Source of the DNA: Thermoanaerobaculia bacterium
GTDB lineage: Bacteria > Acidobacteriota > Thermoanaerobaculia > UBA5066
Length of the DNA: 64,000 nt
Assembly: GCA_963816185.1 (NCBI GenBank)
Contig: CAWFJJ010000001.1
Location: forward strand, 161,224 to 225,223
Direction: 5' to 3'
Shown here piece after piece: positions 16,289 to 54,080 of this stretch; positions within the stretch are counted from its first letter, which is position 1, and each line of letters starts with the position of its first letter. The position numbers and the translations under genes are program-made. Under the pieces are notes generated by a model. It was not told the DNA's origin and ran no database searches. It saw only the letters and a list, made by a program, of their open reading frames with translations.

Positions 16289-16358
16289 CGATGGACGATC
16301 CGCCGAGCGGCCGCGTATCTCACCCCCGCCCGTTTTCGTCTCGGGATGTGAAGTCGGG

Positions 16359-16374: not shown

Positions 16375-16385
16375 GGAGAGCAGCA

Positions 16386-16586
16386 ATGAGGAAGAACATC
16401 GGAAACGTCGAGCGCATCGTCCGGGTGGTTCTCGGGATCGTGGTGGTGTCACTGGCATTCGTGGGTCCCCGGTCGCCTTGGGCGTTGCTGGGGATCATTC
16501 CGATCGTGACGGGATTGATCGGCTATTGCCCACCGTACGCCCTTTTCGGCATCGACACCACGCGCCTCACGTATGGCAAGGGGTGA
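16386..16586 (+). CDS. DUF2892 (YgaP-like) small inner-membrane protein
   Basis: 66 aa. MRKNIGNVERIVRVVLGIVVVSLAFVG ... GLIGYCPPYALFGIDT. Two TM helices and a conserved GxCP motif. Confidence 0.6.
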   Translation: MRKNIGNVERIVRVVLGIVVVSLAFVGPRSPWALLGIIPIVTGLIGYCPPYALFGIDTTRLTYGKG

Positions 16587-16626
16587 GTCCAAGATGGACT
16601 CGGTGCGTCAATCTCGCCGGAGGAAC

Positions 16627-18033: not shown

Positions 18034-18036
18034 TTT

Positions 18037-33893: not shown

Positions 33894-35640
33894 ATGAAAA
33901 AGTTTTCCGTCCTCATCGCCTTGGTGCTCCTCGCGGTCGCGGGCACGGGCTATGCGGTCACCTGCGCGTATGACAACGTGCCGGCGGCCACGTTGCTCGT
34001 TCCGTACTGGAAGGTGTCCCTGAACGGGGCCGCGGGCGCGCCCATCCCCACCGGCGGCACGGACACCCTCGTGTCGATCGTCAACGTCTCCACGCCGGGC
34101 GTCATCGCGCACGTCACGGTCTGGAACAAGTATTCCAAGGCTGTCATCGACTTCAACCTTCCCCTCACCGGGAAGGACGAAGTCTCGTTCTCGATGCGCG
34201 ACATCATGAACGGCAGGCTGAGCCCGAACTTCCCGCAGTGCGACCTGCTCCTGCCTGCGGCTGATCTCGCGAAGTGCCTGGCGACCTACAAGGTCGACCC
34301 GTGCGGCCTGAAGAACCCCGGCCTGCCGACCGCGGTGTACGTGCCGAGCGTCGGCTTCGGCCAGACCCAGTTCATCCGCTTCTCGCACCCCGATGCGGCT
34401 GCCCTGGGCACCGATGTCCTCACGTCGATCTCGCAGTACAACCTCACCACTCAGGACGCGATCGGAGCGGGCTTCCGCGGCAGTCGTGTGGAACTCGCTC
34501 GACGAGTCCGGCGACGTCACGTCGTTCACGTCCTCCTCGGGCGCGAACATCCTCGACAAGGACAACCCGGCTTGCGGCTGGGCCGCCAGCAACCCGGTGG
34601 GTGGCGCCCTGTCCGGCTACCTCACGATCGACGTCGTGAACTATTGCACGAACTTCTTCCCCGACCAGGCCGACTTCTACAACAAGGACGCGATCGCGAC
34701 GGCCGGTTGGACCCAGTCCGCGTACACGAACTTCCCGTGCACGACCGGAGTCGCATGCGCCGTCACGTACACGCCGAACGTCCTGATCGGCGACGTGTTC
34801 TACGTTGACACCGCCACGCAGGGCGGCAACGTCTCGGGCGACCCGGCTGTCGCGCTCGAGTTCGACGCGCGCCTCCCGTTCTCGAACGCAAATGAATCGA
34901 TAAACAAGACCTTCTTCGGCAAGTTCGTCGAGCTGGTCGCCGGCGCGACGGCCGCGTGCCCCGCAGAGCTCACGATTGGTTGCCAGAACCCGAACGTCCC
35001 CGTGAATTTCCGGTTCCCCGGCGACGGCCGCGAGCCCCTCGGCGACCATTACGGCTTCCGCTATCTGGCCGACCAGGCCAACGGCCTTCAGTCCTGGATC
35101 ACCGTTTGGCGCAGCGACATCTACCTGGACACCGCTGGCCTCCCCACCGAGGTCAACCTGTGTGACTGGGCCGATCCCACGAAGGACGCCAACAACGGCG
35201 CCTCGGGCTCTGGGCTCTTCGACGATCTGCACCAGGTCGTGATCCTCACCTACGACAACGACGAGAACCTGTTCGGCGGCGTCGGCGTTCCTCCGGGCCC
35301 GTCCGGTCAGCAGCCCGGCAGCTCGTCCCCGAACTACATCTTCCTCGAGTCCCAGCGCATCGACCTGCTCGCGTCATCGACCGCAGGGACTGGCTGGAAC
35401 CCGCAGCCCTTCAAGGGCGGCTGGGTCGACATCACGTTCCGCGGACCCACGTGGACGGGCGCGGATGATGAGACCGGCTTCTGGAACCAGGCTTGGGTCG
35501 GCGTGCAGCACACTGCTCCCGGCGCGTTCATCAGCGTCGGTCACGCCGCGTCAGACCTGAACAATGACTTCCAGTGCCAGCCGAACAGGTCCACGTTTGG
35601 AACGTACGTCAACTTCCAAACGCCCTCAAACGGCTTCTAA
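33894..35640 (+). CDS. Secreted Cys-rich protein of unknown function. It has an apparent +1 frameshift near 34478.
   Basis: AGGAGT RBS. Signal peptide MKKFSVLIALVLLAVAGTGYA. ORF 33894..34808 continues in ORF 34393..35640. The junction ggcttccgcggcagtc is consistent with one extra C. The C-terminal frame extends with no stop. The gene is flanked by its own promoter candidate and terminator. Confidence 0.55.
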
Positions 35641-35853: not shown

Positions 35854-38800
35854 ATGCCCCATGTGACCCGCACTCGTCGCCACGATCGTTCTCGCGCGTC
35901 CCTTTTCGTGGCAGGCCCCGCCGCCATGGGACTTCTCCTGGTTCTTGCAACGCTTCCTTCGCGCCTGGAGGGTCAGTGCACGCTGTCGGGCTCGCCGGCT
36001 GCGTTCGAACCGAATCCACCCGGCGTCACGCGGCCCGGAACCCTGAGTAGCGGATTCAACAACAGCCTCGTGCTCTATCAGCCGGCGGCAGCGGTCCGTA
36101 TCGGCTCCTCATGCAGGAGTCGTTCGGCTACTCGGTCCTCGATCTCACGACACCGACGAATCCGACCGCGCTCACGTACCACGACATCCGGTTTCCGTTA
36201 GGCGGCCCCAACAGCGTGCGCGCAAGCCGGCGACGGGCAGAATCTCGTTCAGACGATCGCCGTGTCTCCGGACGGGGTGCGCGGGGCCTTCTCGATGACG
36301 GGGCTGTCGGCGACGATCCAGACGGCCGTCGGAACTCCCAGCGGCGGAGGCGGCTTTACCCTCTGGGGGGATTTCTATCCCAAGCGTTCGAACAGCACGC
36401 TCGTCCAGCACATCGGCACACGTTACATCGCGTACGACATCCACCCGAACGTCGTGACGGCCTCGGACGTCAGCTCGTTACCGGGGGGCTCTCTCCAGCC
36501 CAACAACCTCTCGTACGAGATCACGACGTGGCCGGGCGGAGGCCGCGCGGTCCTGGCCGGGAACTACATTCTCTACCAGATCACCGGCGCCATCCGGGTC
36601 ATCGATGCGTCCCTTCCGGGACCCGTCGGAAACATCACGGCCTCTTACCCGCAGACGTCCATCACGAACGCCGATTTTCCCGGCGGCCGCACGATCGCGA
36701 ACTTCACGGCGGCCGTCGATCCGGCCGACGCGACGAAGCTCTGGGTCCTCGTGGAGCTGAGCGCGCTGGCCGGCGAGAACTCGCCCAGCTACGGGCTTCT
36801 CTCCGTCACGAAGAGCGGCCTCGGAAAGGTCTCGGCGGGCCCGACCTGGCGAGTCCCGTCGCAGACGGGCGACGTGTGGCTGCCCGTGGGGATGAGCTCG
36901 GCTCTCGTTGCGAACGGCACCGACCTGTTCGTCCTGATGTGGGCGGAGAGCCAGCTCCCGACGAACCAGTTCCTCCTCTATTCGACGACGGCGGGAGCAT
37001 GGGGGAGCGTGGCTCCGAGCTCATTTCCCGTGAGCGGCACGACGTTCGCGCTCCCGGGGAGGACGGCGGGCTTCGGGGTCGCGGGGACCAGCTCCGTCTA
37101 CTTGTACGTGCCCACGACGGTGTCCGCATACGTGATCCCGATGTCCTGCGTTTCCGTAAACGCGCCCGCGGTCGCATCGATGACCGTCGCCAACCAGGCG
37201 GGCGCAGCTCTCAACAACGGCGACACCGTGTTCCTGGGCGACCGGATCACGATCACTCCGTCGATCAACCCGCCGCCGTCGACCCAGCCCCTGACGGGAT
37301 TCGGCTGGAACTTCGACCTCGACTTTCACGCGGGCGCCGCGTCCGAAGACAACGGCGCCACCGCGTCGCCACGCCTCCATGCGCCGGACAACACCCTGGG
37401 GGTGTTCGGCGTCAGCCAGCAGGCTCCTCTCCCCGCGACCATCTTCGGCCCTTGTGATCCTCAGGTGGGCGGCGTGACCGTGAGTAGCGGCGCCGGCTGC
37501 TGGACCTCGGTCACGACGAACGGCGCGTTCGCCGGCGGCACGGCGGATTTCAACGCGCAAAGTCCGGTCGCGAAGGCCCTCACCTTCGCATTCGAGGCGA
37601 ACAACGTCCTCGGCAGTGCGGGCTCGAAGCTTTTCACGCTGAACTGGGCGATCCCTACGGCGAAGCTCCAGACGACGCAGGTCCTGTCCGGCAGTCCGCT
37701 CGTGAGCGCCTCCGACGGCCACCCGATGGCCACAGGCTTCAAGTGGTATTTCGGCGCGACTTCGGGGGCCCTGACGCAGGCGGCATGTGCCGGCCCGACG
37801 TGCGTGCCGACGTTCGACACGACGGGCACCTACAACTACTGGCTCACGGCGACGTACGCGAACGGGTACGTGACGCCGGACTGCCCGGGCGCTCCGAACT
37901 GCACGGCCGCGATGGGGACGTACACCATCACCGACTTCGCGCCGGCGTTCACCGTGAACGGCAGCACGAGCGGCCCGATCACGGGGGTCATCAACCAGAA
38001 CTTGAACGTGACGAACAGCTCGCAGCGCGGCCAGACCGTGACCGCCGCGGGAGGTTTCTATTACAGCCTCTGCAAGGTTCCCTGTACGGGCGGGGACCAA
38101 TACGTGCTCTGGGGCACGATGGGCGATGCCCCGCCGAGCGGCTCGCCTCCGTATGGTCCGGCGACGATTCCGATCCCGGCCGACGGCCGGGACCTACGCC
38201 CTCAAGATCAGGGTGAATTACACGAACCCGACCGGGACGGCGTTCTGGCCGGATCCGGCAGGCGTCTCCTACTTCACCGTGAACGTCGTGGACGTGACCC
38301 CGCTCGTCGTGACCGAGTCCGTGAACCCTGCGAGCGCGTCCGTCGGCCAGAACGTGACGTTCTCGTGCAACGCGAGCGGCGGCCTCACGCCCTATTCGTA
38401 CCAGTGGCGAAACCCGATCTCGTTCGTCATCCCTGGCGCAACGGGGCCGACGTACACGACCACGTCGACCGTCGCGGGGGGCGTCACGGCCTACTGCTTC
38501 GTCACGGACAGCCAGCAGCCGGTTCCCGCCTCGAGCAGCGCGAGCGCGACCGCGACGTTCACCGGAGGAGGAGGCGGAGGGGGAGGCGGCGGCGGCAATC
38601 TCTCCGTATACGTCTCGGCGAGTCCAAACCCCGGCGCGGTCGGCCAGCCGGTCACGTTCTCGTGCGGCGCCTCCGGCGGGACGGCTCCCTACTCGTACGT
38701 GTGGCGTTCGCCGGCCACGAGCGCGTTCCAGATCCCGGGAGCGACTTCGTCGAGCTACACGACGTCGTCGTCGGTCGTCGGGAGCCTCTCGGCGGGATGC

Positions 38801-40966
38801 ACCGTCACGGACAACGCCGGCGCGCAGAGCACCAACTCGACTACCGTCGCGATCAACGCTCCGGCCGGTCCGCCCGCCGTGTGCGTGGACGCGAACTTCA
38901 CGGTTCTCGACCGGGGAACCGCCCCCTGGGCCCAGATCCCGTCTTCCTCGGCGCTCGGGATTCAGTACTTCGCGGTGGAAACCGGACAGAAGCTCGCCCT
39001 GGTGGCTTCCGGCACCGGCCTGGCGAGCGCGGACTGGACGTTCGGAAACGGCGACACCGCGAGCGGCAATCCGGTGTGGTATTCGTACGCGACCGCCGGG
39101 ACGTTCAACACGACCCTCACCCTGAACTCGGCAACGGCGGGAACGGCCTGCACGAGGTCCTACAAGTTCATCGTCGCGGGCCCCTCGGGCCTCTTCACGG
39201 CGTACTACGCGGACAGCTCGCAGTTCACCTCGACGCAGGTGCAATCCGGGAAGGAGCTGACTTTCCTGGCCACGGACTCGGCCGACAGCTACGCGTGGGA
39301 CTTCGGCGACGGCACCACGGCGACCGGGAAGAGCGTGACGCACGCGTTCCACGTCAGCGGCGGGACGAGCGTCACGTTCACGACGACCCTCACCGTGACG
39401 ATCGGCTCGCAGAACTTGACGACGACGCAGAACTTCACCGTCATTCCGCCGCCCGAGCCGCCGAAGTGGTTCGTCGCGGGCATGGCGTACCTCCAGGGCT
39501 CGCTCGGGGACACGCTCTGGCAGACGGACGTCACCCTTTTCAACCCCGACCCGACCCGTCCGGGTACGTATTCACTCGCCTTCCTCGACGGAAGATCCCC
39601 CGTCGATCCGGCCAACCTCGTCTGGAAGACGATCAATCTCGGCGCGCAGCAGAGCATCTCGTCGCCGAACATCCTGGCCTTCTTCGGGCAGCCGCTCGGA
39701 AGCTACGGAGCCCTTCTCGTGCGGGGCGACTCGGCTCCCGTACCGCCCGTTCTGACGGCGCGTACGTTCAACAGCGGCGACCCCACGAAAGGGACGTTCG
39801 GTCTGTCCGTGCCGTCCACGCAGCCGTCCAGCGGCCTGACGCCTCAGGCCGCGCTCGCGCAGCAGTTCCTCATCGGCCTGCGTGACGACGACACGGCTTA
39901 CACGAACATCGGCCTCATGAACGTCACGACCGACTGGAGCCACGCGCGGCTCGAGTTCACGGATCGCAGCGGAGCCACGAGCTTCGGCAATGTGAACGTG
40001 GACGTGCCGCCGTACGGCGTCGCGCAGCTCTCGCGCCCGCTCTTCGCGGCTCCGCCCAACGGCGTGGGGTTCACGGATGCGCTGGACGAATTCAGCGTCA
40101 AGGTGTCGGTCCTCTCCGGCGGCGCGGTCTTCCCCTACGCGACCGTCATCGACCGCCGGTCGACGGACTCGATCGTCGTGACCGCGTCCGACCGGCCCTC
40201 GCCCACGTCTCGCATGCCCGGCATCATTCGCCTGCAGGGCGCGAACAACACCACGTGGCGGAGCCGTTTCTACATCACGAACCCGTCGACGACGTCCCGT
40301 AAGGCGTCGATCTCCTACTCCTTCATTCCCTGCGACGCGACCGGCTTCTGCAGGGGCCGCGTCACGGGCCTGCAGGCCGACGTGACGATGCTGCCTGGCG
40401 AGACGCTCTGGGCCGACGACTTCCCGAAAGTGTGGCTGGCCGGCTTCGGGTTCGACGTCTCCGACACCACGTCCTACGCGTCCTCGTACGTCGACGTCTC
40501 TCCTTCCCCCGACGACCCGAACCAGGATCCGCTGCTCGTCCTCGGCCAGACGTACAACGACCAGCCGAACGGCCCCGTGGGCCTTCAGGTGCCGGGCTTC
40601 ACCGACGCGGACACCGCTTCGAAGAACGGCGCTTACAAGCGCCTCCTCCTCGCGGGCCTGATCTCGAACGCCTCGTACCGCACGAACGTCGCGGTGTTCC
40701 TCCAGAGAGGCACGTCGGGAAAGTGCACGTTGCACGTGCTGTCCGACACCGGCGTCGAGCTGGGCCACCAGGACATCGGATTCGGCGGCACGAACACGTT
40801 CGTCCAGATCAACGACTCCGCGCTCTTCGGATCGATCTCCGGCAACAAGGACCGGCTCACGATCGTGATCGACTCGTTCGACGGCTCGCCCATCTCGGCG
40901 TACGCGACCGTCGTCGACAATACCTCGGGCGACGCGACGTTCCTGAAGGCCCAACCGGCCCCCTGA
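35854..40966 (+). CDS. Giant secreted Ser/Thr/Gly-rich surface protein (~1700 aa) with PKD-like repeats and a poly-Gly11 tract. It is broken by at least 3 apparent frameshifts.
   Basis: Signal peptide in ORF 35854..36201. The protein continues in frame 0 (36111..), frame 1 (36262..) and frame 2 (38126..40966). Each junction gives a continuous sensible protein. PKD signatures: WDFGDGTTATGKSVTHAF and TFSCNASGGLTPYSYQWR/TFSCGASGGTAPYSYVWR. The junction at ~38190 (ggccgggacc) fits one extra G. Confidence 0.55.
38564..38596 (+). repeat. (GGN)11 simple repeat encoding Gly11
   Basis: The run ggaggaggaggcggagggggaggcggcggcggc lies inside the giant protein gene. Confidence 0.8.
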
Positions 40967-41074: not shown

Positions 41075-42271
41075 ATGCCCTCTCTCCCTTATTCGTTCTC
41101 GAACCTGAGCAAGGTCTACCGCCTCTACTCGGCTCCGCGCGACCGCCTTCTCGAAGCGCTGACCGGCCGCCCGCGACACGCCGAGGTCCACGCGCTCTCG
41201 GACGTTTCCGGGGGCATCGACCGGGGCGCGGTCCTCGGCGTCATCGGCGAGAACGGCTCGGGCAAGAGCACGCTCTTCAAGATCCTTGCGGGAACCACGG
41301 CCGCGACGTCGGGCAGCGTGAGCCTGCCGGGGCGGGTGGCGTCGATCCTCGAGCTGGGGGGGGCCTTCCATCCGGAGGACACGGGCCGGCGCAACGTGAT
41401 CCTGCAGGCCGCCCTCGCGGGGCTCTCGCGCGAGGAGGTCTCCGCGGCTTTGCCGGAGATCGAGGCGTTCGCCGAGCTCGGCGATTTTTTCAACCGGCCC
41501 GTCAAGACGTACTCCTCGGGCATGCAGATGCGGCTCGCGTTCTCGGTCGCGACCGCGGTTCTGCCCGACGTGATCCTGCTCGACGAAGCGCTCGCCGTGG
41601 GCGACGGCCGTTTCCAGAAGAAGTGCGTCGACCGCATTTTCGAGCTCAAGGCCGCGGGCAAGACGATCTTCTTCTGCAGCCACGCCATGTACTACGTGTC
41701 GACGCTGTGCGACCGCGCGCTCTGGCTGAACGCGGGCCGCGTGGAGGCCGCGGGCGACGCGCAGAGCGTCGTTCTGGAGTATGAGAAGTTCCTCGCGCGG
41801 AAGGACGCCGCCGTGCCCCATCAACCCCGCCCGCCCGCGGATTCGCACGGACACATCACGGGCCTTTCCTTCGTCGGCGCCGACGGGATCGACACGGAAG
41901 AATTCCGTCCGAACGAGCCGTGGGTCGCCGAGGTCTCGTTCGAGGGCGACACACCCGAACGGCTCATGCACGTTCATCTGGGCGTCGCGACGCTCGATGG
42001 TGTCGTGTGCTTTACGGCCGACTCTCGTCTCGATGGCGCGGGACCCTTCGGAGGACGAACCCGGCACCGGATCCGCATCGCCCTCGAGAAATTGCCTCTC
42101 GGGAAAGGAGAGTTCGTCGCGAACGTCTTCCTTGGCGACGAGAAAGCTCTCGCGCTCTACGACTCGCGGAGCCGCACGTTCCGCGTGGAATCCGAGACTT
42201 GGCGGAACGGTCTGATGAGCCCGCCGCTCACGTGGAAGACGATTCCCGCGCGGGGCGACGGCCCCGGATGA
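41075..42271 (+). CDS. wzt: Polysaccharide ABC transporter ATP-binding protein Wzt with a C-terminal extension (putative carbohydrate-binding domain)
   Basis: 398 aa. Walker A GENGSGKST, signature YSSGMQMRL, Walker B ILLDEA. About 150 aa lie beyond the NBD (GHITGLSFVGADG ... ). This resembles the Wzt C-terminal O-antigen-binding domain. Confidence 0.85.
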   Translation: MPSLPYSFSNLSKVYRLYSAPRDRLLEALTGRPRHAEVHALSDVSGGIDRGAVLGVIGENGSGKSTLFKILAGTTAATSGSVSLPGRVASILELGGAFHPEDTGRRNVILQAALAGLSREEVSAALPEIEAFAELGDFFNRPVKTYSSGMQMRLAFSVATAVLPDVILLDEALAVGDGRFQKKCVDRIFELKAAGKTIFFCSHAMYYVSTLCDRALWLNAGRVEAAGDAQSVVLEYEKFLARKDAAVPHQPRPPADSHGHITGLSFVGADGIDTEEFRPNEPWVAEVSFEGDTPERLMHVHLGVATLDGVVCFTADSRLDGAGPFGGRTRHRIRIALEKLPLGKGEFVANVFLGDEKALALYDSRSRTFRVESETWRNGLMSPPLTWKTIPARGDGPG

Positions 42272-43275
42272 GGATCGCGTACATCCTCGAGTCCCTCGAG
42301 CTGTCAGGCGGCGTCAAAGTCGTCGTCGCGCACGCCGAAGGACTCGCAGCCCGGGGACACGACGTCTCGATCGTGACGAGGGACGCACGGCATGACTGGC
42401 TCGAGATCCGGGTGCCGATCGTGGCCGTTCAGCATTTCGGCCCCGAGACGCTGCCCGAAGCCGATGTCCACGTCGCGACATGGTTCCCGACGGTCCTCCC
42501 CGTCGTCAACGCGCACCGCGCCGCGCAGGTCTTTCATTTCTGCCAGGGCTACGAGGCGCCCCATCCGCACACCGTTCACCGGCTTGCGGAGATCGAAGAG
42601 GCCTATCGGCAGGGGATTCCGAAGCTGCTCGTCTCAGCGCACCTTCTCCCGCTTCTCGAAGGGCGTTATCCGGGGCCCTTCCACGTCCTGCCGCAGGCGA
42701 TTTCGGCGCGGGACTTCGCGCCGCCCGATCCCGAGCGCACCCGGCCGCGGCGCCCCTCGGTCCTCGGCGTCGTCGGCCCGTTCGAGGCTCCTCTGAAGGG
42801 GATCGGCTTCGCGCTCCGTGCGGCCCTCAGGCTCCGCGAGGGAGGCCGCGACGTGCACCTTCACCGTGCGAGCGCCCTGCCGCTCACCGAGGCCGAGCGG
42901 GACCTGTGCGCGCCCGACGCGTATTCCCACGCGCTTCCCGCGGCGGCGATGCCGGCGTGGTACCACGGCCTCGACGTCCTCCTGTATCCCTCTTTCGACG
43001 CCGAGGGCTTCGGGCTTCCGCCGCTCGAGGCGATGGCCTCGGGGGTCCCGGCCGTCATCTCCGACATCCCGTCGCTCGTCGTCCTGCCGCCTGACGCGGT
43101 CTCCCGCGTCTCGGCCGGCGATTTCGCGGCGATGTCGCGGGAGGCAGCCGGCCTCCTCGACGACCCGGCGTTGTGGGCCGAGCGGCGCGCCCGGGGTCTC
43201 GAGGTCGCCCGGACGTTCACGATCGACCGCGTCCTCGACCGGCTCGAGGAAATCTTCTGTCAGAAGACGTCGTGA
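42268..43275 (+). CDS. Glycosyltransferase family 4 (GT-B)
   Basis: 335 aa. ATGA overlap with wzt. The C-terminal motif EGFGLPPLEAMASGVPAV is typical of GT4. Confidence 0.8.
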   Translation: MRIAYILESLELSGGVKVVVAHAEGLAARGHDVSIVTRDARHDWLEIRVPIVAVQHFGPETLPEADVHVATWFPTVLPVVNAHRAAQVFHFCQGYEAPHPHTVHRLAEIEEAYRQGIPKLLVSAHLLPLLEGRYPGPFHVLPQAISARDFAPPDPERTRPRRPSVLGVVGPFEAPLKGIGFALRAALRLREGGRDVHLHRASALPLTEAERDLCAPDAYSHALPAAAMPAWYHGLDVLLYPSFDAEGFGLPPLEAMASGVPAVISDIPSLVVLPPDAVSRVSAGDFAAMSREAAGLLDDPALWAERRARGLEVARTFTIDRVLDRLEEIFCQKTS

Positions 43276-44222
43276 TCGAGAAACCGGTAGTCGAAGGTGG
43301 GCGCGGCGCGCACGAGATCGAACGCGGGATGGAACGGGCGCACCGTGAAATGCGTATCGCTGACCGCCGGCGCGAAGCCCAGCTCGGCCGCGCGGGCGGC
43401 GAGACCGCTCTTCGAGCCCGCGCGCAGGACCAGCGTCCGCGCCCCGGTTCCCGCGAGCGCCTCCACGATCGTGTCGAGAAGGTCCGCCACGGCGCCGCCA
43501 TCTTCGTCCGCGGCCTGAAGATCGACGAGGAGGGCGCGGTCGGCGACGGTCCGAAGGGCGGCGTACGCCGTCGAATGGCCCCGCCCGTCGAGGAGCTCGT
43601 GAACGTCGTACGAGACGCCCGGGCGCGCGAAGCGCCAGTCGAGCGTGGAGCGCGAGCGGTCGGTGCGCCAGCCTGCTCGGGCGTGGAGCTCCTCGGCGAG
43701 CGCGTCATGAGCCTTCGAGACGACCGGGCCGCGGCGATGCCGCAGCCGGCGCCGCCTCAGGCGCGCGAGGAAGCCGGAGCTGCCGATGGCGCGCGTCCAT
43801 TCCGCAGCAGGCTCGACAGAGATGTATTCGAGCATCCGCTCGCCCGCGAGGAGGTGCCGGTCGTTCGGGAACCCGAGGACGAACGGGGCACCCGCCGCGC
43901 CGTTCCGGTCGAAGAACTCCAGGGCGACGCGCTGAAAAAGCACGCGGCGTCCGAGCGCGCGGGACGACGGCGCGGTCATCACGTCTACCGCGGAGAGCCC
44001 GGGGAGATTGCCCTCGCGTCCGCGGTAGCGCGTCCCGAGGCCTCCGAAGAACCCGACCGCTTTCTCTCCGTCGAATGCGCCGACGGACACCGCAGAGTGC
44101 GGGCAGCGGTCGTATTTCCACGCCCAGTCTTCCGGCGAGGCCTCGGCCCCGAACGCCGCGCGAAAGAGCTCGAGAAGAGCCGGCCGGTCGGCGGGCGTCG
44201 CAGGTCGCACCTTGACGTGCAT
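43260..44222 (-). CDS. GNAT-like acyltransferase (Acetyltransf_6/FemAB-like)
   Basis: 320 aa. N-terminal ATPADRPALLELFRAAFG. Weak GNAT-fold similarity only. Confidence 0.5.
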   Translation of the reverse strand: MHVKVRPATPADRPALLELFRAAFGAEASPEDWAWKYDRCPHSAVSVGAFDGEKAVGFFGGLGTRYRGREGNLPGLSAVDVMTAPSSRALGRRVLFQRVALEFFDRNGAAGAPFVLGFPNDRHLLAGERMLEYISVEPAAEWTRAIGSSGFLARLRRRRLRHRRGPVVSKAHDALAEELHARAGWRTDRSRSTLDWRFARPGVSYDVHELLDGRGHSTAYAALRTVADRALLVDLQAADEDGGAVADLLDTIVEALAGTGARTLVLRAGSKSGLAARAAELGFAPAVSDTHFTVRPFHPAFDLVRAAPTFDYRFLDHDVF

Positions 44223-44239
44223 CGGCCCGAAAATACCTC

Positions 44240-45301
44240 ATGCCCCTGATTTCCGCCGTCCTCGTGAGCTATCGGTCCGCGGGCCTGGCCGTGCGCGCGA
44301 TCGAGAGCCTGCGCAGTGACGCGGCGAAAGCGAACCTCGCGCTCGAGACGATCGCCGTCGTGAACTCGGGCGACCCGGAGGAAGCGCGCGCTCTCGCCTC
44401 GGCCGCCGATCGCGTCGTCGATCCCGGCCGCAACCTCGGCTTCGCGGGCGGCCTCAACGCCGGGATCTCTGTCGCGCGCGGGGAGATCCTCGTCCTCGCG
44501 AATCCCGACGTCGTCGTCGGCGCGGGGACGCTCGAGGCGCTCTCGGCCGAGGTGCTCGGCTCCTTCGTCGCGGCGGGTCCGGCGCTCTTCCTCGACGAAG
44601 CCGAGACGCTCCACCTGCCGCCCGCCGAGGAGCCGCACCCGTTCGAGCTCGCGCGCCGCCGGCTCCGAGGAGCCGACTGTCAGGCAGCGTTCCGGCGGCG
44701 GTACCGGCGCGCACGGGGCGCGGCCGAAGCGGCGGAGAGAAACGAGACTCGCCTCACGACGGCCCTTTCGGGGGCGTTCATCGCGGTGTCTCGGCGGACG
44801 CTCGAGCGCGTCGGTGCTTTCGATGAGGGCTACGCACTCTACTTCGAGGAGAACGACTGGCAGCGGCGCCTGAGGAAGACCGGAGGCCGGCTGTCGCGCG
44901 TCGGCGCCGCGCGCGTCGTCCATCGGTACAACCAGAGCGCCCGGCTCGAGCCGCGCGCCGCAGCCTGGTTCGCGGCGTCCGAACGCCGCTATTTCGAGAC
45001 GTATTTCGGCGTGCGGGGCTCACGCGCGCTCGACGCTCTCGCGGCCACGCCGTCGCGGGCTGCTGACGCTCCCGTTCCGGCGCCTCTCGCGAACGGCATC
45101 CTTCTCTTCGACGCGCCGTCCGCCGCCATCGCGCTTTCGCCGGTATCGGACTTCGGTGCGTTCGCGCTCGATCCGTGCGCCTCGGGCGGCTCCTGGCGTC
45201 CGCCGGAAAACGTCAGGCGAGGCTTCGGCGGCGCCACGTGGTTCGTGCGGGCCGTGGACCTCGAGACGGGCCGCATCCTGTCCGAAGGTACTCTCTCCTG
45301 A
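44240..45301 (+). CDS. Glycosyltransferase family 2
   Basis: N-terminal VLVSYRS ... IAVVNSGD. GT-A DxD-type region NPDVVV. It also has GAFIAVSRRTLERVGAFDE. Confidence 0.8.
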   Translation: MPLISAVLVSYRSAGLAVRAIESLRSDAAKANLALETIAVVNSGDPEEARALASAADRVVDPGRNLGFAGGLNAGISVARGEILVLANPDVVVGAGTLEALSAEVLGSFVAAGPALFLDEAETLHLPPAEEPHPFELARRRLRGADCQAAFRRRYRRARGAAEAAERNETRLTTALSGAFIAVSRRTLERVGAFDEGYALYFEENDWQRRLRKTGGRLSRVGAARVVHRYNQSARLEPRAAAWFAASERRYFETYFGVRGSRALDALAATPSRAADAPVPAPLANGILLFDAPSAAIALSPVSDFGAFALDPCASGGSWRPPENVRRGFGGATWFVRAVDLETGRILSEGTLS

Positions 45302-45374
45302 TGCTCCGGCGCTTCTCGAGCGGTGAAGGGGGAAGGGGGAAACACGTCCGTGTTTCCCCCATCACTCACAGCTG

Positions 45375-47387
45375 CTAGCGCGCCCTTCCTAGGCGCGTGC
45401 GAAGCACGCGGCGCGCTAGCTGGGCGGCCTTCCAGACCCTCGAGCCGGCGATCGCGCTCAGCGTCTTTCCGAGCTCGTGTCGCTCGGCCACGAGGCTCGT
45501 GCGCGTGCGGTGCTCGAAGGCGAGGAGCTCGAGCGCGGCACGCTCGCCCGGCGACACCTCCCGCGCAGGAGGGAGCCGGTCCATGAACGCGCGGAAACGC
45601 GTGGCCGTGAGCTTCCATGTGAAGCGCCGAGCCGTCTCGACGCCCTTTGCCGCGAGTCGCTCTCGGAGCGCCGGATCGTCGAGCAGCCGCCGGATGCCCG
45701 CCTCGAGCGCCTTTGAATCCCGCGGGGGCACGACGAGCGCGTTGACTCCGTCGATCGCGTATTCGGCGGCGCCGCCGGAGTCTGTCAGGACGCACGCGGC
45801 CCCGCTCGCCATGCCCTCGAGCCCGATGAGGCCGAAGCCCTGGAAGAGAGAGGGATCGATCACGATGTGTACCGTCGAGAGGAGGTTCGGCACCGCGTCC
45901 CGCTGTATCGTGCCGAGATGCGTGTGCCGGAAGCGGGGCGCGTCGGCCGGCACCGTCGCGTGCCCGAAGAGGACGATGTCGACGCCGGGCCGGTTCGCGA
46001 TCTCGGCGAGCGCGGGAAGAAGGAACTTCATCCCACGCCGCTCGTCCTGCCGCAACATCGCGGTGATGCGGATCGGGGGGCCCGCCTGCCTGTCCCCCCG
46101 CGGGTAGTACACGTCGGGATCCGCGCTGATCGGGATGGGAGTCGCCACGTGTCCGTCGCGCGTCTCGATCTCGCGGGCGAGCCAGGTCGAGATCGTGACG
46201 ATGCGGGGTATGAGGTCGTACGTTCGCGCGACGTACTCGGGCGAGTCGAAGCCGAACCAGCCTTCGTAATCCTGGACGAAGTAGGCCGTCTGGATTCCGC
46301 GGGATGCCGCGGCGGCAGCCACGTGGGCTGCGGTCTGGTATCCCGTGGCGACGAGCAGCTTCGCGGGCGGGCAGCGTTCGAGGAATTCCGCCGCCGAGAG
46401 CCGAAGCGGCCGGAAGAAGAGCTCCATCTCGATTTCCGGCGGCACGGTCTCGAAGACGACGACGCCGGCGCGCACGCCCTGGAGCACGAGCGCGTTCGCG
46501 AGCTCGAGGACGTCCGCCACGCCCCCGTAGATCCCGAGGAGCGGCAGGACGAAGAGGACGTCGTAAGGAGCCGCCGGCTCGGAATCGGGCAGCGTCCACT
46601 CGAACGTCACGGCGTCGCGCACGGCGCCGAGCTCGTTCCTGCCGTTGAACTCGGCGAGCTCCTTCTCGTGCCGTTCACGCCAGCGGGACATCAGGATCCT
46701 GAGGTTCGCAGCGATCCGCACATCGGAATCGGGAAAGCTCGCGCCTTGGCGGTGGTGAATCCACGTGTCGTCGGCGACGACGCAGCGCCAGCCCGCCGCG
46801 CGCGCCCGGTAATGGAGGTCGGTCTCCTCGCAGTAGCCGCGTCCGAAGACCTCGTCGAAAACCCCGAGCGTGCGGATGACCTCGCGCCGCACGAGAAGGC
46901 AGTGGCCGACGATCGTCGTCGCATCGGGGTACCGCGCGGGGCTGGTCCGCGCGACGCGGCGGGCGAACGAGAAGACGTTCTCGCCGGGAGGGAGCTTCAC
47001 CGAGAGGTTCACGGCGCTGCCCGAGAGGGGGCAGCAGAGGCCGATCGCGGGATCCCCTTCGCAACGCGCCACCATCCGCTCGAGAGCGCCCTCCGTGAGA
47101 AGGGTGTCGGAATTCAGGAGGCAGACCCACGGCGCGTCGGAGAACAGGAGCCCGCGGTTCGCGGTCTTCACGAAGCCGAGATTCACCTCGTTTTCGAGGA
47201 GGACGATCCCTTCCTGCGCCCTCAGGAACTGCGTGGTCCGGTCGTTGCTCCCGTCGTTGACGACGACGACGCGCGCCCAGGAAGGGGCGAAGCGGCGCAC
47301 GCTCTCGAGGCAGTCGCGTGTCGAGCGGAGCGCGTTGTAGACCGGGATGACGAGGTCGCAGCGCACTCCCGCGGTTGGAACCGTCAT
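45375..47387 (-). CDS. Bifunctional glycosyltransferase (N-terminal GT2 + C-terminal GT4) with a C-terminal helical tail
   Basis: 670 aa from MTVPTAGVRCDLVIPVYN. The GT2 part has VVVNDGSND, CLLNSD and GHCLLVRREV. The GT4 part has GFGLIGLEGMASGAACVLTD. ATGA overlap with the next gene. Confidence 0.8.
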   Translation of the reverse strand: MTVPTAGVRCDLVIPVYNALRSTRDCLESVRRFAPSWARVVVVNDGSNDRTTQFLRAQEGIVLLENEVNLGFVKTANRGLLFSDAPWVCLLNSDTLLTEGALERMVARCEGDPAIGLCCPLSGSAVNLSVKLPPGENVFSFARRVARTSPARYPDATTIVGHCLLVRREVIRTLGVFDEVFGRGYCEETDLHYRARAAGWRCVVADDTWIHHRQGASFPDSDVRIAANLRILMSRWRERHEKELAEFNGRNELGAVRDAVTFEWTLPDSEPAAPYDVLFVLPLLGIYGGVADVLELANALVLQGVRAGVVVFETVPPEIEMELFFRPLRLSAAEFLERCPPAKLLVATGYQTAAHVAAAAASRGIQTAYFVQDYEGWFGFDSPEYVARTYDLIPRIVTISTWLAREIETRDGHVATPIPISADPDVYYPRGDRQAGPPIRITAMLRQDERRGMKFLLPALAEIANRPGVDIVLFGHATVPADAPRFRHTHLGTIQRDAVPNLLSTVHIVIDPSLFQGFGLIGLEGMASGAACVLTDSGGAAEYAIDGVNALVVPPRDSKALEAGIRRLLDDPALRERLAAKGVETARRFTWKLTATRFRAFMDRLPPAREVSPGERAALELLAFEHRTRTSLVAERHELGKTLSAIAGSRVWKAAQLARRVLRTRLGRAR

Positions 47388-48409
47388 CGCTTCAGGAGCT
47401 CCTTGAGCTTCCACCACGGTGTGAAGAGACGCCACGCGAGAGAGCTGTTCATGGCATCGACGGTCGCGCGAAGTCGGACGTTCTCGACGGCGAGCGCCTG
47501 CTCACGCGTCGCGGACTCTTCGCTCTGGCGCGCGGTGTGATCCCGTGTCGCACGCAGCTCGGCTTCGCGGGCGGCGGCCGCGGCGAGGGCCGCCCGGTCC
47601 GCCTCACTCCGCGCGCGGGCCTCTCCGGCTTCGCTCTCGAGGCTGTCGATGACGGCCATCTCGGTCGAAACCGACCGCCGAGCCGCATGTTTCTCGAAGA
47701 GGCGGCGGCGAGCCGTCTGCGCTTCCGCCGAGTGCCACGGAAAGGCGGCCGTGATGTTCGACGCGTCGTTACGGACCCGGTAGACGGCGGTGACGGAAGG
47801 CAGATGATGGAACCGCGTCCGCGCGGAGAGGCGGATGAGGAAATCCCAGTCCTCGAACTCGTCGAAGGTCTCGTCGAAGCCGCCGATCTCTTCCGCGAGT
47901 GCGCGGCGATGCGCGAGGCCGATGAGGGGAATGTCATTCTTGTAGAGGAGACGCGCGGCATCGAACGGCCTCCCGTAGACCGTGATCTCGCGCCCGCCGC
48001 GGTAACGACCGTCGTCGCCGAGCACCTGCTCGATCTGGCGGACGGACGTGTAGGCGGCGCGGTACTCGTCGCTGCCGTCGAGAAAACGCACCAGCGTGTC
48101 GAGATGAGCGGGCAGGTAGAGGTCGTCGTCGTCGAGATACGCCACGTACGTGCCGCGCGCGGCCGCGAGGCCGGCGTTCAGGGACCGCGTTCTCCCGCCC
48201 GGTGGAGGCGGAACGAGCACCTGGATGGCACGGCCCGGCGCAGGGTCGAGAAGTCCGGCCGGAAGGAGGCCGCCGTCGTTCACGAGAACGGTCTCGAAGT
48301 CGGAGAACGTCTGGGCGCGAAGGCTGTCGAGGGCCTCGGCGAGGAGGCTCGGCCGGTCCTTCGTCCGGAGCAGCACGGAAACGCGCGGCGCGCTTGCCTG
48401 ATCGACCAC
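47384..48409 (-). CDS. Glycosyltransferase family 2 with a C-terminal coiled-coil and a Trp-rich amphipathic tail
   Basis: GTG start. GT2 motifs VSVLLRTKDRP ... VLVNDGG ... YLDDDD. The last ~100 aa are heptad/Ala-Arg-Glu rich and end in SSLAWRLFTPWWKLKELLKR. Confidence 0.8.
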   Translation of the reverse strand: MVDQASAPRVSVLLRTKDRPSLLAEALDSLRAQTFSDFETVLVNDGGLLPAGLLDPAPGRAIQVLVPPPPGGRTRSLNAGLAAARGTYVAYLDDDDLYLPAHLDTLVRFLDGSDEYRAAYTSVRQIEQVLGDDGRYRGGREITVYGRPFDAARLLYKNDIPLIGLAHRRALAEEIGGFDETFDEFEDWDFLIRLSARTRFHHLPSVTAVYRVRNDASNITAAFPWHSAEAQTARRRLFEKHAARRSVSTEMAVIDSLESEAGEARARSEADRAALAAAAAREAELRATRDHTARQSEESATREQALAVENVRLRATVDAMNSSLAWRLFTPWWKLKELLKR

Positions 48410-48441
48410 TGAACTGATTGTAGGCGGTAAGCTTCCCCGAG

Positions 48442-49224
48442 ATGCCGTCCCCTGATTTTCCGGACGAGCGCGAACTCGTGCCTTACGAGGCGTCGACGTT
48501 CTTCGCGAGTCGCGTCGTCGTATTCGCCCCGCATCCGGACGACGAGGTCCTCGGCTGCGGCGGGGCGCTCGCGGACCTCCTCGACCGCGGGGCCCGCCTC
48601 GACGTCGTCCTCGTGACGGATGGCGCGGCGGGGGCGCGCGACGCCGAAGAGCGTGGGCGCATCGCGAAAACGCGGATGGAGGAATCGCGCCGGGCTCTCG
48701 ACGCGCTCGGCGGCGGGGCGTTGCATGCTGGCGGCTTTCCCGATCGCGGCCTCGCGGACCGGCTCGACGACGTCGAGGCGCTGCTCGAGAGATGGCTGCT
48801 CGAAGCGTCGCCCGACCTCGTTTTCGCGCCGTCGCCGGTCGAAACGCATCCCGATCATCGCGCGGTCGCTGCCTCTCTCCTCCGGCTGGCGGCGCGTCCC
48901 GCCGGCGATGCAGCGGCCCGGGCGCTGGAGGGGACGATCGTGGCGTTCTTCGAGCTCTCCCAGCCCTTCCGTCCCAACTTTCTCTTCGACGCCACTCGCG
49001 TCGCCGACCGCAAGGAGCGGGCGATGGCCGCGTTCTTTTCCCAGGCTGCCGAGCGAGACTACGCGGGGTTCGCAAGGGGTCTCAACGCCTACCGCCGGAT
49101 GACGCTTTCCGCGGACGTCGCCTCCGTCGAGGCGTACTCCGTGGCAGCCGGTTCCCGGCTTCGTCGCGACCCGGAAGGGGTCGTCCGGGCGCTCCTTCCC
49201 GTCGCGGCGGCAGGGAAGAGATAA
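48442..49224 (+). CDS. PIG-L/LmbE-family N-acetylglucosaminyl deacetylase
   Basis: 260 aa with the HPDDE motif (VVFAPHPDDEVLGCGG) and a later HPDH motif. Confidence 0.85.
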   Translation: MPSPDFPDERELVPYEASTFFASRVVVFAPHPDDEVLGCGGALADLLDRGARLDVVLVTDGAAGARDAEERGRIAKTRMEESRRALDALGGGALHAGGFPDRGLADRLDDVEALLERWLLEASPDLVFAPSPVETHPDHRAVAASLLRLAARPAGDAAARALEGTIVAFFELSQPFRPNFLFDATRVADRKERAMAAFFSQAAERDYAGFARGLNAYRRMTLSADVASVEAYSVAAGSRLRRDPEGVVRALLPVAAAGKR

Positions 49225-49325
49225 TGGCGTCCGGGACAGGGGACATTCGGTCCGAACGCGGCGGGCAGGGCCTTTGCATTTCCGCCAAGGGGACGTGGAT
49301 TGAAACCTCGTCCGGGAGCCCCAAA

Positions 49326-50429
49326 ATGGTCACTTCCTCTTCAGATCGAATCCGTCCGGCCCTCGTCGCCTGTGCCGCGCTCTGCGCGGCCCTTCTCGTG
49401 TTCCCCCGGGCTGCCAACGCCGCTGGACAGAGCGGCGGGCACGGAGGAGGTGGCGGAAGTCACTCCGGAGTAAGTCACTCCGGCGGGGGCCATGTGAGCA
49501 GCTCTCACTCCTCGGGCCGCACGACCGCCGCGTTCCACGGCGGCAGCCGCGGCGGATTCCATGGTGGGTTCCATGGCCGCGGTTTCCGCCACTTCCGCGG
49601 GGGCTTCTCTCCGTGGTGGGGCTGGGGTTGGGGTTGGGGCGGGTGGCCGTATGACTGGTGGTGGGGCGGCCCGAGCGTCTATGTCGTCACGGGCGATGAA
49701 GACGGCTATGTGGACGTCGCCGCGCGCACCGGTCGATACGCGATCGTGAAGACCGACGTCTCGCCCGAAGAGGCGCAGCTCTACCTCGACGGCAAGTACA
49801 TCGGCTCCGCCGACGACTTCGACGGAATGCCCGGCTACCTCTATCTCGGCCCCGGGAAATACCACCTCGAGTTCCGTCTGCCGAATTACACGACCTTCGC
49901 CACGGATCTCGACGTGACGCCGGGCCAGCGCGTGCGCCTCGACCAGAAGCTGAAGCTCGCGCCGGGCAAGAGCGCCCTCGACCAGTTCCCGCCCGAATCG
50001 AAGGGCACGCCTCTCGGCCGCGTCTTCGCAAAGGGCGCCGACGGGGCCGCTGAAGCGGCCCCGCCTCCGGGGCCTCAGGGGCCGCGGTACGGGACTCGCC
50101 GCGACGACGGATGGAGCGACCGCGACACCCCGCCTCAGGGCGAGGGAATGTCCGAGGAGCAGATGGACGCCCGGCCCGAGCCCCTGCCGCGGCGGGCCGC
50201 AAACCGCGCGCGCATGAGATTCAAGGTCACGCCCGAGGACGCCGCCGTCTACGTCGACGACAAATACCTCGGCGCGGGCGAAGATCTCGAGGCCAACCCG
50301 CGGGGCGTCGTCACGGATCCCGGCAAGCACACGATCACCGTCACGCGTCCCGGTTACAAGACGAAGACCGTCGACATCACCGTCCGCATCGGCGCCCCGG
50401 TGGACGTCGTCGTGGAGCTCGAGAAGTAA
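49326..50429 (+). CDS. Secreted protein with a Gly/His-rich and Trp-rich low-complexity region followed by two PEGA domains
   Basis: Signal peptide MVTSSSDRIRPALVACAALCAALLVFPRAANA. It has the runs GGHGGGGGSHSGVSHSGGGH and WWGWGWGWGGWPYDWWWGG. Two PEGA-like repeats (PEEAQLYLDGKYIG ... PGKYHLEF and PEDAAVYVDDKYLG ... PGKHTITV). Confidence 0.7.
   Translation: MVTSSSDRIRPALVACAALCAALLVFPRAANAAGQSGGHGGGGGSHSGVSHSGGGHVSSSHSSGRTTAAFHGGSRGGFHGGFHGRGFRHFRGGFSPWWGWGWGWGGWPYDWWWGGPSVYVVTGDEDGYVDVAARTGRYAIVKTDVSPEEAQLYLDGKYIGSADDFDGMPGYLYLGPGKYHLEFRLPNYTTFATDLDVTPGQRVRLDQKLKLAPGKSALDQFPPESKGTPLGRVFAKGADGAAEAAPPPGPQGPRYGTRRDDGWSDRDTPPQGEGMSEEQMDARPEPLPRRAANRARMRFKVTPEDAAVYVDDKYLGAGEDLEANPRGVVTDPGKHTITVTRPGYKTKTVDITVRIGAPVDVVVELEK
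49614..49670 (+). repeat. Trp/Gly codon-rich low-complexity tract (tggggttgg repeats)
   Basis: Read directly. It encodes WWGWGWGWGGWPYDWWWGG. Confidence 0.7.
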
Positions 50430-50708: not shown

Positions 50709-51695
50709 ATGAAGCAATTCCAATCCGCGTTTACCCGTGGACTCATCTTTGCCGCTTTCCTGACCGTAGGGGTCGCGGAACCCGGCCGCGCGGAAGAAGC
50801 CACGCATGAAGCCGGCAAAGTGATTGACGTGAGCGCCTTCCGGGCCGCTCCCGACGCGGGGGTGACGGTCACGGGCGCTTCGACGAGCGAAAGCTCTGAC
50901 TCTCGGTCTCCGGAGATCGCGGCCGGCCGTGCCGCCCTCGCACAACCTGGCTGCACGATTTGTCTCGGGGGCACGGGGTCGATCCAGTGGAACGGAGCGA
51001 GCGGGTCTTTCCATGTCGACAGCATCACCAATAACCGCAGCTCCGGCACGAGCGGATCACTCGACCTGAGGGTGGCCCTTTCGAGCTCCTTTCCCGTGTA
51101 CGGCCAGACGCTGACCTATTACTCGTTCTCGGACACACTCTCGCTGAATCCGCTCGCCGCGGGGTACATGTATTCAAACGTCAACTCGGGGGCCGTCAAC
51201 TACCACGGAAGCTCCATTCCGGCGGGTCTGTATTGGCAGCTCCTCTACTTGCGGGAGTATCAGGGCGGGGGCGTCTACCAATACGCCGACTGGATTGTGA
51301 TGCCCAACAAGATCTCGTGCAATGGCTCCGGATGCTCCGTCGTTTCATCGTGCACCGAGGACGCCTACACGATGTGTCTCGTGAACGGGCGTTACCGGGT
51401 CACGAGCCACTGGAAGAACCAGTACGCCGGCGGGGCGACGGCGAATCTCTCCAAGGCGAAGCTGACGGACACGACGGGTGCTTTCTGGATCGCGGACGCG
51501 AACACCTACGAGTACCTGGTCAGGTTCAACACGGCGACGAATAACGGCAGAATCTGGGTCGCGATCCCCACGTTTACCGACGTCGAGTTCTGGGTGGATG
51601 TGACGGACACCGTCGGCGGGCAGAGCAAGGAGTACCACAGCCTTCCGGGGAACCAGACGCTGATCTACGACCCGTTCTTCTTCATCTATCCGTAG
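50709..51695 (+). CDS. Secreted hypothetical protein (Cys-containing, beta-rich)
   Basis: Signal peptide MKQFQSAFTRGLIFAAFLTVGVAEPGRA. No recognisable domain. Confidence 0.45.
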   Translation: MKQFQSAFTRGLIFAAFLTVGVAEPGRAEEATHEAGKVIDVSAFRAAPDAGVTVTGASTSESSDSRSPEIAAGRAALAQPGCTICLGGTGSIQWNGASGSFHVDSITNNRSSGTSGSLDLRVALSSSFPVYGQTLTYYSFSDTLSLNPLAAGYMYSNVNSGAVNYHGSSIPAGLYWQLLYLREYQGGGVYQYADWIVMPNKISCNGSGCSVVSSCTEDAYTMCLVNGRYRVTSHWKNQYAGGATANLSKAKLTDTTGAFWIADANTYEYLVRFNTATNNGRIWVAIPTFTDVEFWVDVTDTVGGQSKEYHSLPGNQTLIYDPFFFIYP

Positions 51696-53261: not shown

Positions 53262-53323
53262 CGGTTAGTCGCCGAGCGAGAGTCGGAGGCGACGCATGGG
53301 GTATCGTGAGATTCAGAGACCCA

Positions 53324-54034: not shown

Positions 54035-54080
54035 CCGCCTCCTCCTCGCCTCGGACTCGCTGACCGTACAATTCCGTCGT

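Follow-up and report, generated by a model that had tools for sequence, protein, structure and literature searches.

The DNA analysed here is a 64,000-nucleotide stretch (the window; GC ~68%) of an uncultured acidobacterium known only from a metagenome-assembled genome. Its nearest relatives are genomes of the same kind, with the label Thermoanaerobaculia or Acidobacteriota. Pfam scans delineate a glycan locus at ~31.0 to 59.4 kb of the window, within which wzt (41075-42271, + strand) encodes an ABC transporter ATPase of 398 aa. The wzt open reading frame has a strong third-position GC bias (GC3 of 0.86), and its product is 100% identical to database protein P0001 and has more than 100 full-length homologues at 62-90% identity in a database search. 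The only candidate partner found is wzm (31063-31830, +), located 9.2 kb upstream of wzt and encoding an ABC-2 permease (Pfam ABC2_membrane, E 3e-13) that is Wzm/RfbD- and KpsM-like in NCBIfam at scores below the cut-off. The intervening DNA contains a gene for an FG-GAP protein (31894-33600, +), two unknown genes (about 33900-35640, +) and a gene for a large PKD/Ig protein (36262-40966, +). This arrangement, in which large FG-GAP and PKD protein genes separate wzm from wzt, is kept in the related loci L001-L003. The two transporter genes are also separated in Synechocystis, where hypothetical genes lie between slr0977 (wzm) and slr0982 (wzt) (PMC3769361).

Downstream of wzt is a GT4 glycosyltransferase gene (42268-43275, +), the start of which overlaps the wzt stop (ATGA). 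A GT4 gene follows wzt in all relatives, mostly directly, and in L001, L013 and L087 after a gene for a 420-aa methyltransferase. The conserved glycan-assembly core (43260..49224) then comprises genes for a GNAT-like protein (43260-44222, -), a GT2 (44240-45301, +), a GT2+GT4 protein (45375-47435, -), a second GT2 (47384-48412, -) and a PIG-L deacetylase (48442-49224, +), and is followed by a PEGA protein gene (about 49250-50429, +). All relatives examined keep the same gene order between wzt and the PIG-L and PEGA genes; screening metagenome contigs with the PIG-L gene as anchor yielded no more than two additional orthologous loci. Further downstream are genes for a secreted protein (50709-51695, +) and for a PMT_2-like GT-C membrane glycosyltransferase (51729-53261, +; Pfam PMT_2 at 26.1 bits, which is at the cut-off), a methyltransferase gene of the Methyltransf_24 family (MT24; 53324-54034, +), a coiled-coil/GT2-like/GT4 gene (54081-56106, +), a GT4 gene termed GT4c (56093-57155, +) and a second methyltransferase gene (MT11; 57152-57814, -), of which GT4c is a conserved neighbour. 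A degraded membrane-protein gene (about 57850-59450, -) and holB (59485-60429, -) complete the region. NCBIfam provided no specific name for any of the locus proteins.

Compared with intact orthologues, single frameshifts break at least four of the locus genes, at about 34475, 38150, 54660 and 56412. The coiled-coil glycosyltransferase gene is a single gene interrupted near 54655-54668 (intact orthologues of 672-681 aa), and GT4c is interrupted near 56409-56416 (intact orthologues of 349-353 aa). Since sister assemblies carry like defects, the frameshifts point to assembly error rather than biology, although, given these interruptions, the locus might be partly decayed.

The N-terminal part of Wzt is a clear ABC transporter ATPase domain (residues 1-242, nt 41075-41800). 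Pfam ABC_tran matches residues 41-173 (E 3e-18), and residues 12-242 align with Aquifex aeolicus Wzt at E 1e-59 (1.2e-59 by phmmer against the PDB), with the teichoic-acid ATPases TarH and TagH as the next PDB matches. The ATPase domain is followed by ~156 residues, made up of a linker (residues 243-258, nt 41801-41848) and an eight-strand beta domain (residues 259-390, nt 41849-42244, +) with a short tail. The initial annotation, which had the ATPase domain ending around residue 250 with some 150 aa beyond it, agrees well with the end at 242-250 found here. The C-terminal extension that it described is thus real, but its start at nt 41880 is not accurate: the peptide quoted for it begins at G259, corresponding to nt 41849 and ~30 nt earlier, and the whole extension begins near nt 41801. 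Tyr236 of Wzt is invariant in the family and aligns with the hinge-helix residue Tyr233 of A. aeolicus Wzt, which contacts the glycan (PMC9445017). Since TarH, which is without the C-terminal domain, also has a Tyr at this position, the residue is not diagnostic for that domain.

Fold and evolution of the Wzt C-terminal domain

The Pfam family Wzt_C (PF14524) matches residues 259-379 of Wzt over profile positions 10-139 of 143 (130 positions), with E 3.3e-5 and 24.3 bits, short of the curated cut-off of 30.4 bits; most Wzt homologues at 62-90% identity have a precomputed PF14524 call. The alignment of a full-length family profile with A. aeolicus Wzt extends across the linker into the first two strands of the binding domain. 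PDB sequence searches with the C-terminal 158 aa, as a single sequence and as a 34-sequence profile, gave 0 matches, so that the relation of this domain to Wzt binding domains is visible by fold comparison only. An AlphaFold2 (AF2) monomer model of residues 240-398 was built from the aligned C-terminal regions of 34 homologues (42-83% identity). The model (mean pLDDT 85.9, pTM 0.81) has a disordered linker at 243-258 (pLDDT 43-67) and eight beta strands in 259-390, with pLDDT above 90 across most of the domain. In a Foldseek search of the PDB, ranks 1-16 are all Wzt carbohydrate-binding domains, from three species (E 1.7e-7 to 1.2e-5, TM 0.60-0.76), followed by RhoGDI and glycosidase accessory domains at a query-normalised TM of at most ~0.56. 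Among the 16 are A. aeolicus 6O14 and 8DKY, of which 8DKY has 3-O-methyl-D-mannose bound. Cryo-EM structures at full length (8DL0, 8DKU, 8DNE, 7K2T) are likewise among them, as are 2R5O from E. coli O9a and 5HNO and 5HNP from R. terrigena O12. Identity between these solved binding domains and the domain in the window is only 12-16%.

The best structural match is the A. aeolicus WzmWzt transporter (6O14, 8DKY, 7K2T, 8DKU; E 1.7e-7, TM 0.69/0.76). A. aeolicus Wzt has the same architecture and size (404 aa in the deposited chain vs. 398 aa here) and its ATPase domain is the best sequence match, whereas the two binding domains are only ~15% identical. The methyl pocket of A. aeolicus Wzt is formed by Leu300, Thr346, Ala348 and Trp362; in the domain of the window, W376 and W387 would be candidates for an aromatic lid. 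The E. coli O9a/O8 and Klebsiella O3/O5 Wzt proteins likewise carry a binding domain after the ATPase domain, and 2R5O from this group is among the top matches. Fold prediction thus yields a Wzt carbohydrate-binding beta-sandwich and not a dimerisation helix, in line with the earlier proposal of a cap-reading extension. Because the domain models as such a beta-sandwich, the reading that it recognises a terminal modification is, by analogy with the solved domains, well founded. Judged by its predicted fold, the protein belongs with the binding-domain Wzt proteins, and what the model describes is a familiar exporter design in a new lineage rather than a new mechanism. A profile of the domain detects 461 cluster representatives at E <=1e-3 among 1.84 billion proteins. 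Most of the full-length matches (~390-430 aa) share the architecture and likewise carry the domain C-terminally; many of the listed matches are shorter fragments.

How the domain has evolved was assessed among nine orthologous loci, in which binding-domain types could be defined. Type A comprises the window, L002/L006 and L012 (76-82% mutual identity) and type B comprises L003, L008 and L009 (89-96% identity), with singleton domains in L001, L013 and L004. Identity between types is only 48-65%, whereas the ATPase domains are 83-93% identical across loci except for L001 and L004, which are more distant (69-76%). The binding domain is under purifying selection within types, with dN/dS of 0.06-0.33, which also indicates that wzt is a real gene and not a chance open reading frame. 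Between types, dN is 0.31-0.34 for the binding domain vs. 0.04-0.09 for the ATPase domain while dS is approximately doubled, and among relatives the binding domain diverges about sevenfold faster than the ATPase domain. The combination of low within-type dN/dS and high between-type dN suggests that the domain is constrained but evolving, or being exchanged, as a separate cassette. From the sequence comparison it behaves as an exchangeable specificity cassette, and such constraint together with cassette-like divergence speaks against a vestigial domain or one with a structural role alone. The same divergence behaviour has been described for the specificity-determining domain of the E. coli and Klebsiella systems, and the O9a/O8 and O3/O5 loci resemble the window both in the faster divergence of the binding domain and in having methyltransferase genes in the locus. 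The close relatives of the window provide a natural experiment, with near-identical ATPase domains and with binding domains and methyltransferase genes swapped between loci, which could help to match each enzyme to the cap it makes and to find the pocket residues that recognise it.

These data bear directly on the question of whether the domain still reads a cap at all. It could instead only dimerise Wzt or bind the polymer backbone, with export being independent of termination; the Pfam Wzt_C score under the cut-off, the lack of a terminator of a known family in the locus, and the lack of a methyltransferase directly after wzt, unlike in L001, L013, L087 and the cyanobacterial loci, all speak for this. 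We consider such a loss of cap recognition very improbable, however, in view of the within-type purifying selection and the 23 domain columns that are invariant across all 34 sequences. The fast type-wise divergence fits a domain that determines ligand specificity and not a pure dimerisation domain, and every characterised Wzt domain of the same fold binds caps (PMC9445017).

Methyltransferases and candidate capping enzymes

The two SAM methyltransferases noted earlier in the locus are both class I enzymes, according to Pfam and, for MT11, AF2. Every related locus in which the sites could be fully inspected encodes at least one methyltransferase, the kinds and positions of which vary: MT24, MT11, an enzyme of 248-274 aa, or the 420-aa enzyme directly after wzt. 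The last position, occupied in L001, L013 and L087, is the classical one for wbdD, and there is no homologue of the 420-aa methyltransferase within the window. With regard to a likeness to WbdD, PDB sequence searches with MT24 and MT11 gave only generic class I methyltransferases, as did Foldseek with the AF2 model of MT11, in which WbdD was not preferred.

MT24 (236 aa; Pfam Methyltransf_24, E 2.5e-11) is encoded in a slot flanked by the genes for the GT-C enzyme and the coiled-coil glycosyltransferase. Only the window and L012 have MT24 in this slot (2/10 related loci); in L006 the slot holds an unrelated 241-aa methyltransferase, and in L009, L011, L013, L165, L166, L167 and L168 it is empty. 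MT24 might still be the terminator, considering that its position is that of the methyltransferase domain in fused terminator-polymerase proteins: 46 nt separate it from the coiled-coil glycosyltransferase gene that follows, the homologous protein in Calothrix has a methyltransferase domain fused at its N-terminus (compare Klebsiella O7 ORF6; PMC11231755), and in L006 another methyltransferase occupies the slot. We regard this as improbable, given that MT24 and the fused cyanobacterial domain share no homology and that the seven loci with an empty slot include L165 and L166, whose binding domains are 81-83% identical to that of the window (the two loci being paired indirectly with Wzt proteins P0003 and P0004). 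A type-A domain thus does not require MT24, and MT24 was rejected as a partner of that type, L165 and L166 being type A with an empty slot. The gene content of the relatives suggests that MT24 is a strain-variable accessory gene, more likely responsible for a strain-specific extra decoration.

MT11 (220 aa, starting MAGLRIDLGCG; Methyltransf_11, E 9e-7) is convergent to GT4c. Its AF2 model is a class I methyltransferase with a compact alpha/beta domain, and its C-terminal half is conserved and rich in His and Trp. The site after GT4c is occupied by MT11 in the window, L165 (96% identity), L166 (73%) and L168 (82%), and by an unrelated 248-274-aa methyltransferase in L167, L013 and L087. Where both the binding-domain type and the enzyme are known, MT11 occurs with type A in 3/3 loci (window, L165, L166) and the 248-274-aa enzyme with non-A types in 3/3 loci (L167, L013, L087), an association that comprises a small sample of six loci with indirect pairing for two. 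The pattern is not simply phylogeny, since the flanking genes of L167 are as close to those of the window (87-89% for the GT4, holB and GT2+GT4 products) as are those of L165 and L166. Because MT11 co-varies with the binding-domain type and recurs in cyanobacterial Wzt_C loci, it is on circumstantial grounds the better candidate for the terminal-modification enzyme than MT24. Of the two methyltransferases that the initial annotation placed in a recognition module with Wzt, then, MT11 is retained as a candidate, as it tracks the binding-domain type in six loci, and MT24 is not, being absent alongside domains that are 81-83% identical. Both MT11 and MT24 could also methylate internal residues.

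The latter option forms part of a broader alternative, in which the cap would not be a methyl group but a terminal sugar or acyl group added by a glycosyltransferase or the GNAT-like protein, with the methyltransferases decorating internal residues. A precedent for a terminal-sugar cap is beta-Kdo in Klebsiella O12/O4. The caps bound by solved Wzt binding domains differ chemically, and the domain in the window matches the fold of the Kdo-binding domain 5HNO equally well. All relatives conserve at least seven glycosyltransferase modules together with the GNAT-like protein and the PIG-L deacetylase, and close relatives do without MT24. We see a non-methyl cap as possible but clearly less probable than a methyl cap, considering that the conserved genes do not follow the binding-domain type: the GNAT-like protein is 84% identical to that of a type-B locus and 51% identical to that of a type-A locus, and GT4a has a similar identity pattern, while the methyltransferase at the MT11 site does follow the type. 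Moreover, Pfam found no GT99- or GT137-like terminator.

An enzyme of the MT11 family could also be placed in a wider context. The family has 177 detected members, with 71-97% identity within Acidobacteriota and ~50-56% in cyanobacteria. MT11 homologues at 51-53% identity adjoin GT4c in cyanobacterial-type loci that have wzm, wzt (with Wzt_C) and coiled-coil glycosyltransferase homologues. The order in L169 (Calothrix NIES-22) and L170 is wzm, wzt, a methyltransferase related to the 420-aa kind, and homologues of the coiled-coil/GT2/GT4 protein, GT4c and MT11. In L169 (5853-8882) the methyltransferase and the coiled-coil/GT2/GT4 homologue are fused into one protein of 1009 aa, to the C-terminal part of which the 54081-56106 product is homologous. 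The locus of a further MT11 homologue (L171) encodes eight methyltransferases, and no transporter gene is found within 10 kb. The coiled-coil glycosyltransferase, GT4c and MT11 thus form a cassette that is common to two phyla and associated with binding-domain Wzt proteins, which suggests an old and widespread assembly module that is biochemically unstudied.

The coiled-coil glycosyltransferase (54081-56106) begins with a short coiled coil and an amphipathic helix, after which come its GT2-like and GT4 domains. Its coiled coil, the only one seen in the locus, is ~30 residues long, judged by eye, and is followed by an amphipathic SFFWKVRNAWWRLKG segment; the orthologues of 672-681 aa carry the N-terminal motif SQDSFEELREELEKTRAELSEARARIAGMEMSFFWKVRNAWWRLKG and then the GT2-like and GT4 domains. 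The protein resembles Klebsiella O7 ORF6 and O12 WbbB in having a coiled coil followed by glycosyltransferase modules, here two, but in those proteins the terminator is on the same polypeptide, whereas no terminator domain was found on the window protein or its acidobacterial orthologues. Klebsiella O7 ORF6 consists of a methyltransferase-kinase, a coiled coil and two glycosyltransferase modules, and its cyanobacterial orthologues have been noted (PMC11231755); the Calothrix 1009-aa protein, with its methyltransferase fused at the N-terminus, has this O7 layout. By comparison with the E. coli O9a/O8 and Klebsiella O3/O5 systems, the window is without a WbdD homologue, kinase or extended coiled-coil ruler, its methyltransferases are small and stand-alone, and its wzm and wzt are non-adjacent. 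Besides a SAM methyltransferase domain for the terminal sugar, WbdD has an extended coiled-coil ruler and, at its C-terminus, a region for membrane attachment and polymerase recruitment; in O9a it also has a kinase. Pfam detected no kinase domain in the locus proteins scanned, and the coiled coil of the 54081 product appears too short for a WbdD-type ruler. Thus, with neither a kinase nor a long coiled-coil ruler in the locus, the length control that had been proposed for the glycan does not find support.

A proposed route of glycan export and its surface context

What was observed directly comprises the predicted fold, the homology of the ATPase domain, the selection on the binding domain, the content of the locus and its variation among relatives. 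The reading that we favour, with a probability of roughly 60%, is that Wzt is the ATPase of a carbohydrate-binding-domain-dependent Wzm/Wzt exporter, with the cap most likely being O-methyl and MT11 most likely being the enzyme that makes it. Transporters with a Wzt carbohydrate-binding domain need a capped chain (PMC9445017), and by analogy the exported glycan is probably end-capped before export. We infer cap binding, the chemistry of the cap, the capping enzyme and the fate of the exported glycan, as follows. The cytoplasmic glycosyltransferases of the locus would assemble a polyprenol-linked glycan, the elongation of which would be halted by a modification of the non-reducing end, with MT11 adding an O-methyl cap. 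The C-terminal beta-sandwich of Wzt, by analogy a dimer that exchanges C-terminal strands and docks on the hinge helix of the ATPase, would bind this non-reducing-end modification, and the bound cap would license the chain for ATP-driven export via Wzm. In Synechocystis, a mutant in the methyltransferase slr1610 phenocopies the wzm and wzt mutants, and the exported product of slr0977/slr0982 is an exopolysaccharide and not an O antigen (PMC3769361). The favoured reading would place cap-dependent ABC-transporter glycan export in the Thermoanaerobaculia (Acidobacteriota), most of which are uncultured and whose cell-surface glycans have so far not been characterised.

As for the destination of the glycan, one tentative and rather doubtful suggestion is that the transporter serves a lineage-specific surface system, in which a capped glycan would be coupled to secreted proteins by GT-C attachment or by anchoring, and not an LPS O antigen. 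The suggestion stems from the fact that in this clade wzm and wzt bracket the genes for the FG-GAP protein and for a PKD-domain protein of ~1,570-1,800 aa, and from the secreted C-terminal-domain proteins being encoded next to the GT-C glycosyltransferase gene. PMT_2-like GT-C enzymes belong to the periplasmic-face class, and the GT-C gene adjoins a gene for such a C-terminal-domain protein in the relatives as well.

The side observations made at the locus are more unusual than the Wzt finding itself. One to four secreted proteins per locus carry an unannotated C-terminal domain of ~110 aa that ends in ...LIYDPxxFVYP, and the genes for these proteins always adjoin the PMT_2-type GT-C gene.

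Methyltransferases at two fixed sites

The methyltransferases of the locus sit at two fixed positions and are subject to non-orthologous replacement at both. The first is an intergenic slot with the GT-C gene, encoding a PMT_2-type glycosyltransferase, on one side and the coiled-coil glycosyltransferase gene on the other; depending on the relative, this slot holds non-homologous methyltransferases or is empty (53262-54080 in the window, and 17338-18063 and 18842-19516 in the related acidobacterial loci L006 and L012). At the second site, following the GT4 glycosyltransferase gene GT4c, the methyltransferase MT11 (57152-57814, minus strand) alternates with an unrelated methyltransferase of 248-274 aa. 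Within the MT11 family, SAM motif I lies at residues 7-11, and the C-terminal half is strongly conserved and rich in His, Trp and Asp, with W82, P84, W87, NSAF 89-92, H96, NEDH 101-104, H107, C109 and F115-W116 as conserved residues. Since solved methyltransferases match the whole predicted model weakly (TM at most 0.52), this half may constitute a distinctive acceptor-binding region.

A coiled-coil plus amphipathic motif with the pattern …EELREELEKTRAEL…MEMSFFWK-RNAWW-LKG was also observed. It forms the N-terminus of the window's coiled-coil glycosyltransferase (54081-54220), and in the cyanobacterial loci it is C-terminal on stand-alone methyltransferases, including an MT11 homologue (L170 6378-6521; L171 1592-1696 and 10661-10780). 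The motif may link terminator and polymerase, serving both as a common element for docking or membrane association.

In the close relative L165, a second PMT_2-type GT-C gene (15522-17129, minus strand) lies between MT11 and holB. The same interval holds two extra unknown genes (~580 aa), whereas the window retains only degraded remnants at this position.

A recurrent C-terminal domain on secreted proteins

A domain of ~110 aa, with the pattern C-x-EDAYTMCL-x-GRYRVTSHWKNQYAGGA ... GAFW ... YEYLIR-NTATDNG ... LIYDPxxFVYP-stop, has no Pfam or NCBIfam match. In any one locus it forms the C-terminus of between one and four distinct secreted proteins. One carrier has an S8-peptidase-like region, and others are propeller-like or PKD proteins; their genes are always flanked by the PEGA gene on one side and the PMT_2 GT-C gene on the other. 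Examples are found at 50709-51695 in the window, L009 12272-14245, L011 4182-7349, L013 12413-16285 and L012 10864-14982, 15194-16003 and 16085-17170. Among 172 sequences (171 loci and the window), the domain is confined to Thermoanaerobaculia loci.

Interrupted genes

Five genes of the window's glycan locus are broken relative to intact orthologues. Single frameshifts interrupt an unknown 397-aa gene (about 34471-34478), the giant PKD protein gene (38110-38200), the coiled-coil/GT2/GT4 gene (54655-54668) and GT4c (56409-56416), while the gene for a membrane protein of ~585 aa is degraded into fragments (57850-59450). The one frameshift inspected, of the four, falls in a G/C run. These breaks may reflect decay of the locus; long-read assembly error is the likely cause, because the sister assemblies L006, L009 and L167 carry comparable breaks.

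Locus layout and conserved core

The permease gene wzm (31063-31830) and the exporter ATPase gene wzt (41075-42271) are 9.2 kb apart in the window. The first gene between them, at 31894-33600, codes for an FG-GAP repeat protein; two genes for unknown proteins follow (about 33900-35640), and then the gene for a PKD/Ig protein of ~1,570 aa (36262-40966), whose conserved C-terminal ~490 aa have no Pfam match. The more distant L004 lacks this split layout; L001, L002 and L003 keep it. The conserved core in all relatives includes genes for a GNAT-like protein (320 aa; 43260-44222, minus strand; weak Acetyltransf_9 match), a PIG-L-type de-N-acetylase (48442-49224, plus strand) and a PEGA-domain protein (about 49250-50429, plus strand), and this conservation hints at an amino sugar in the glycan that is de-N-acetylated and re-acylated.
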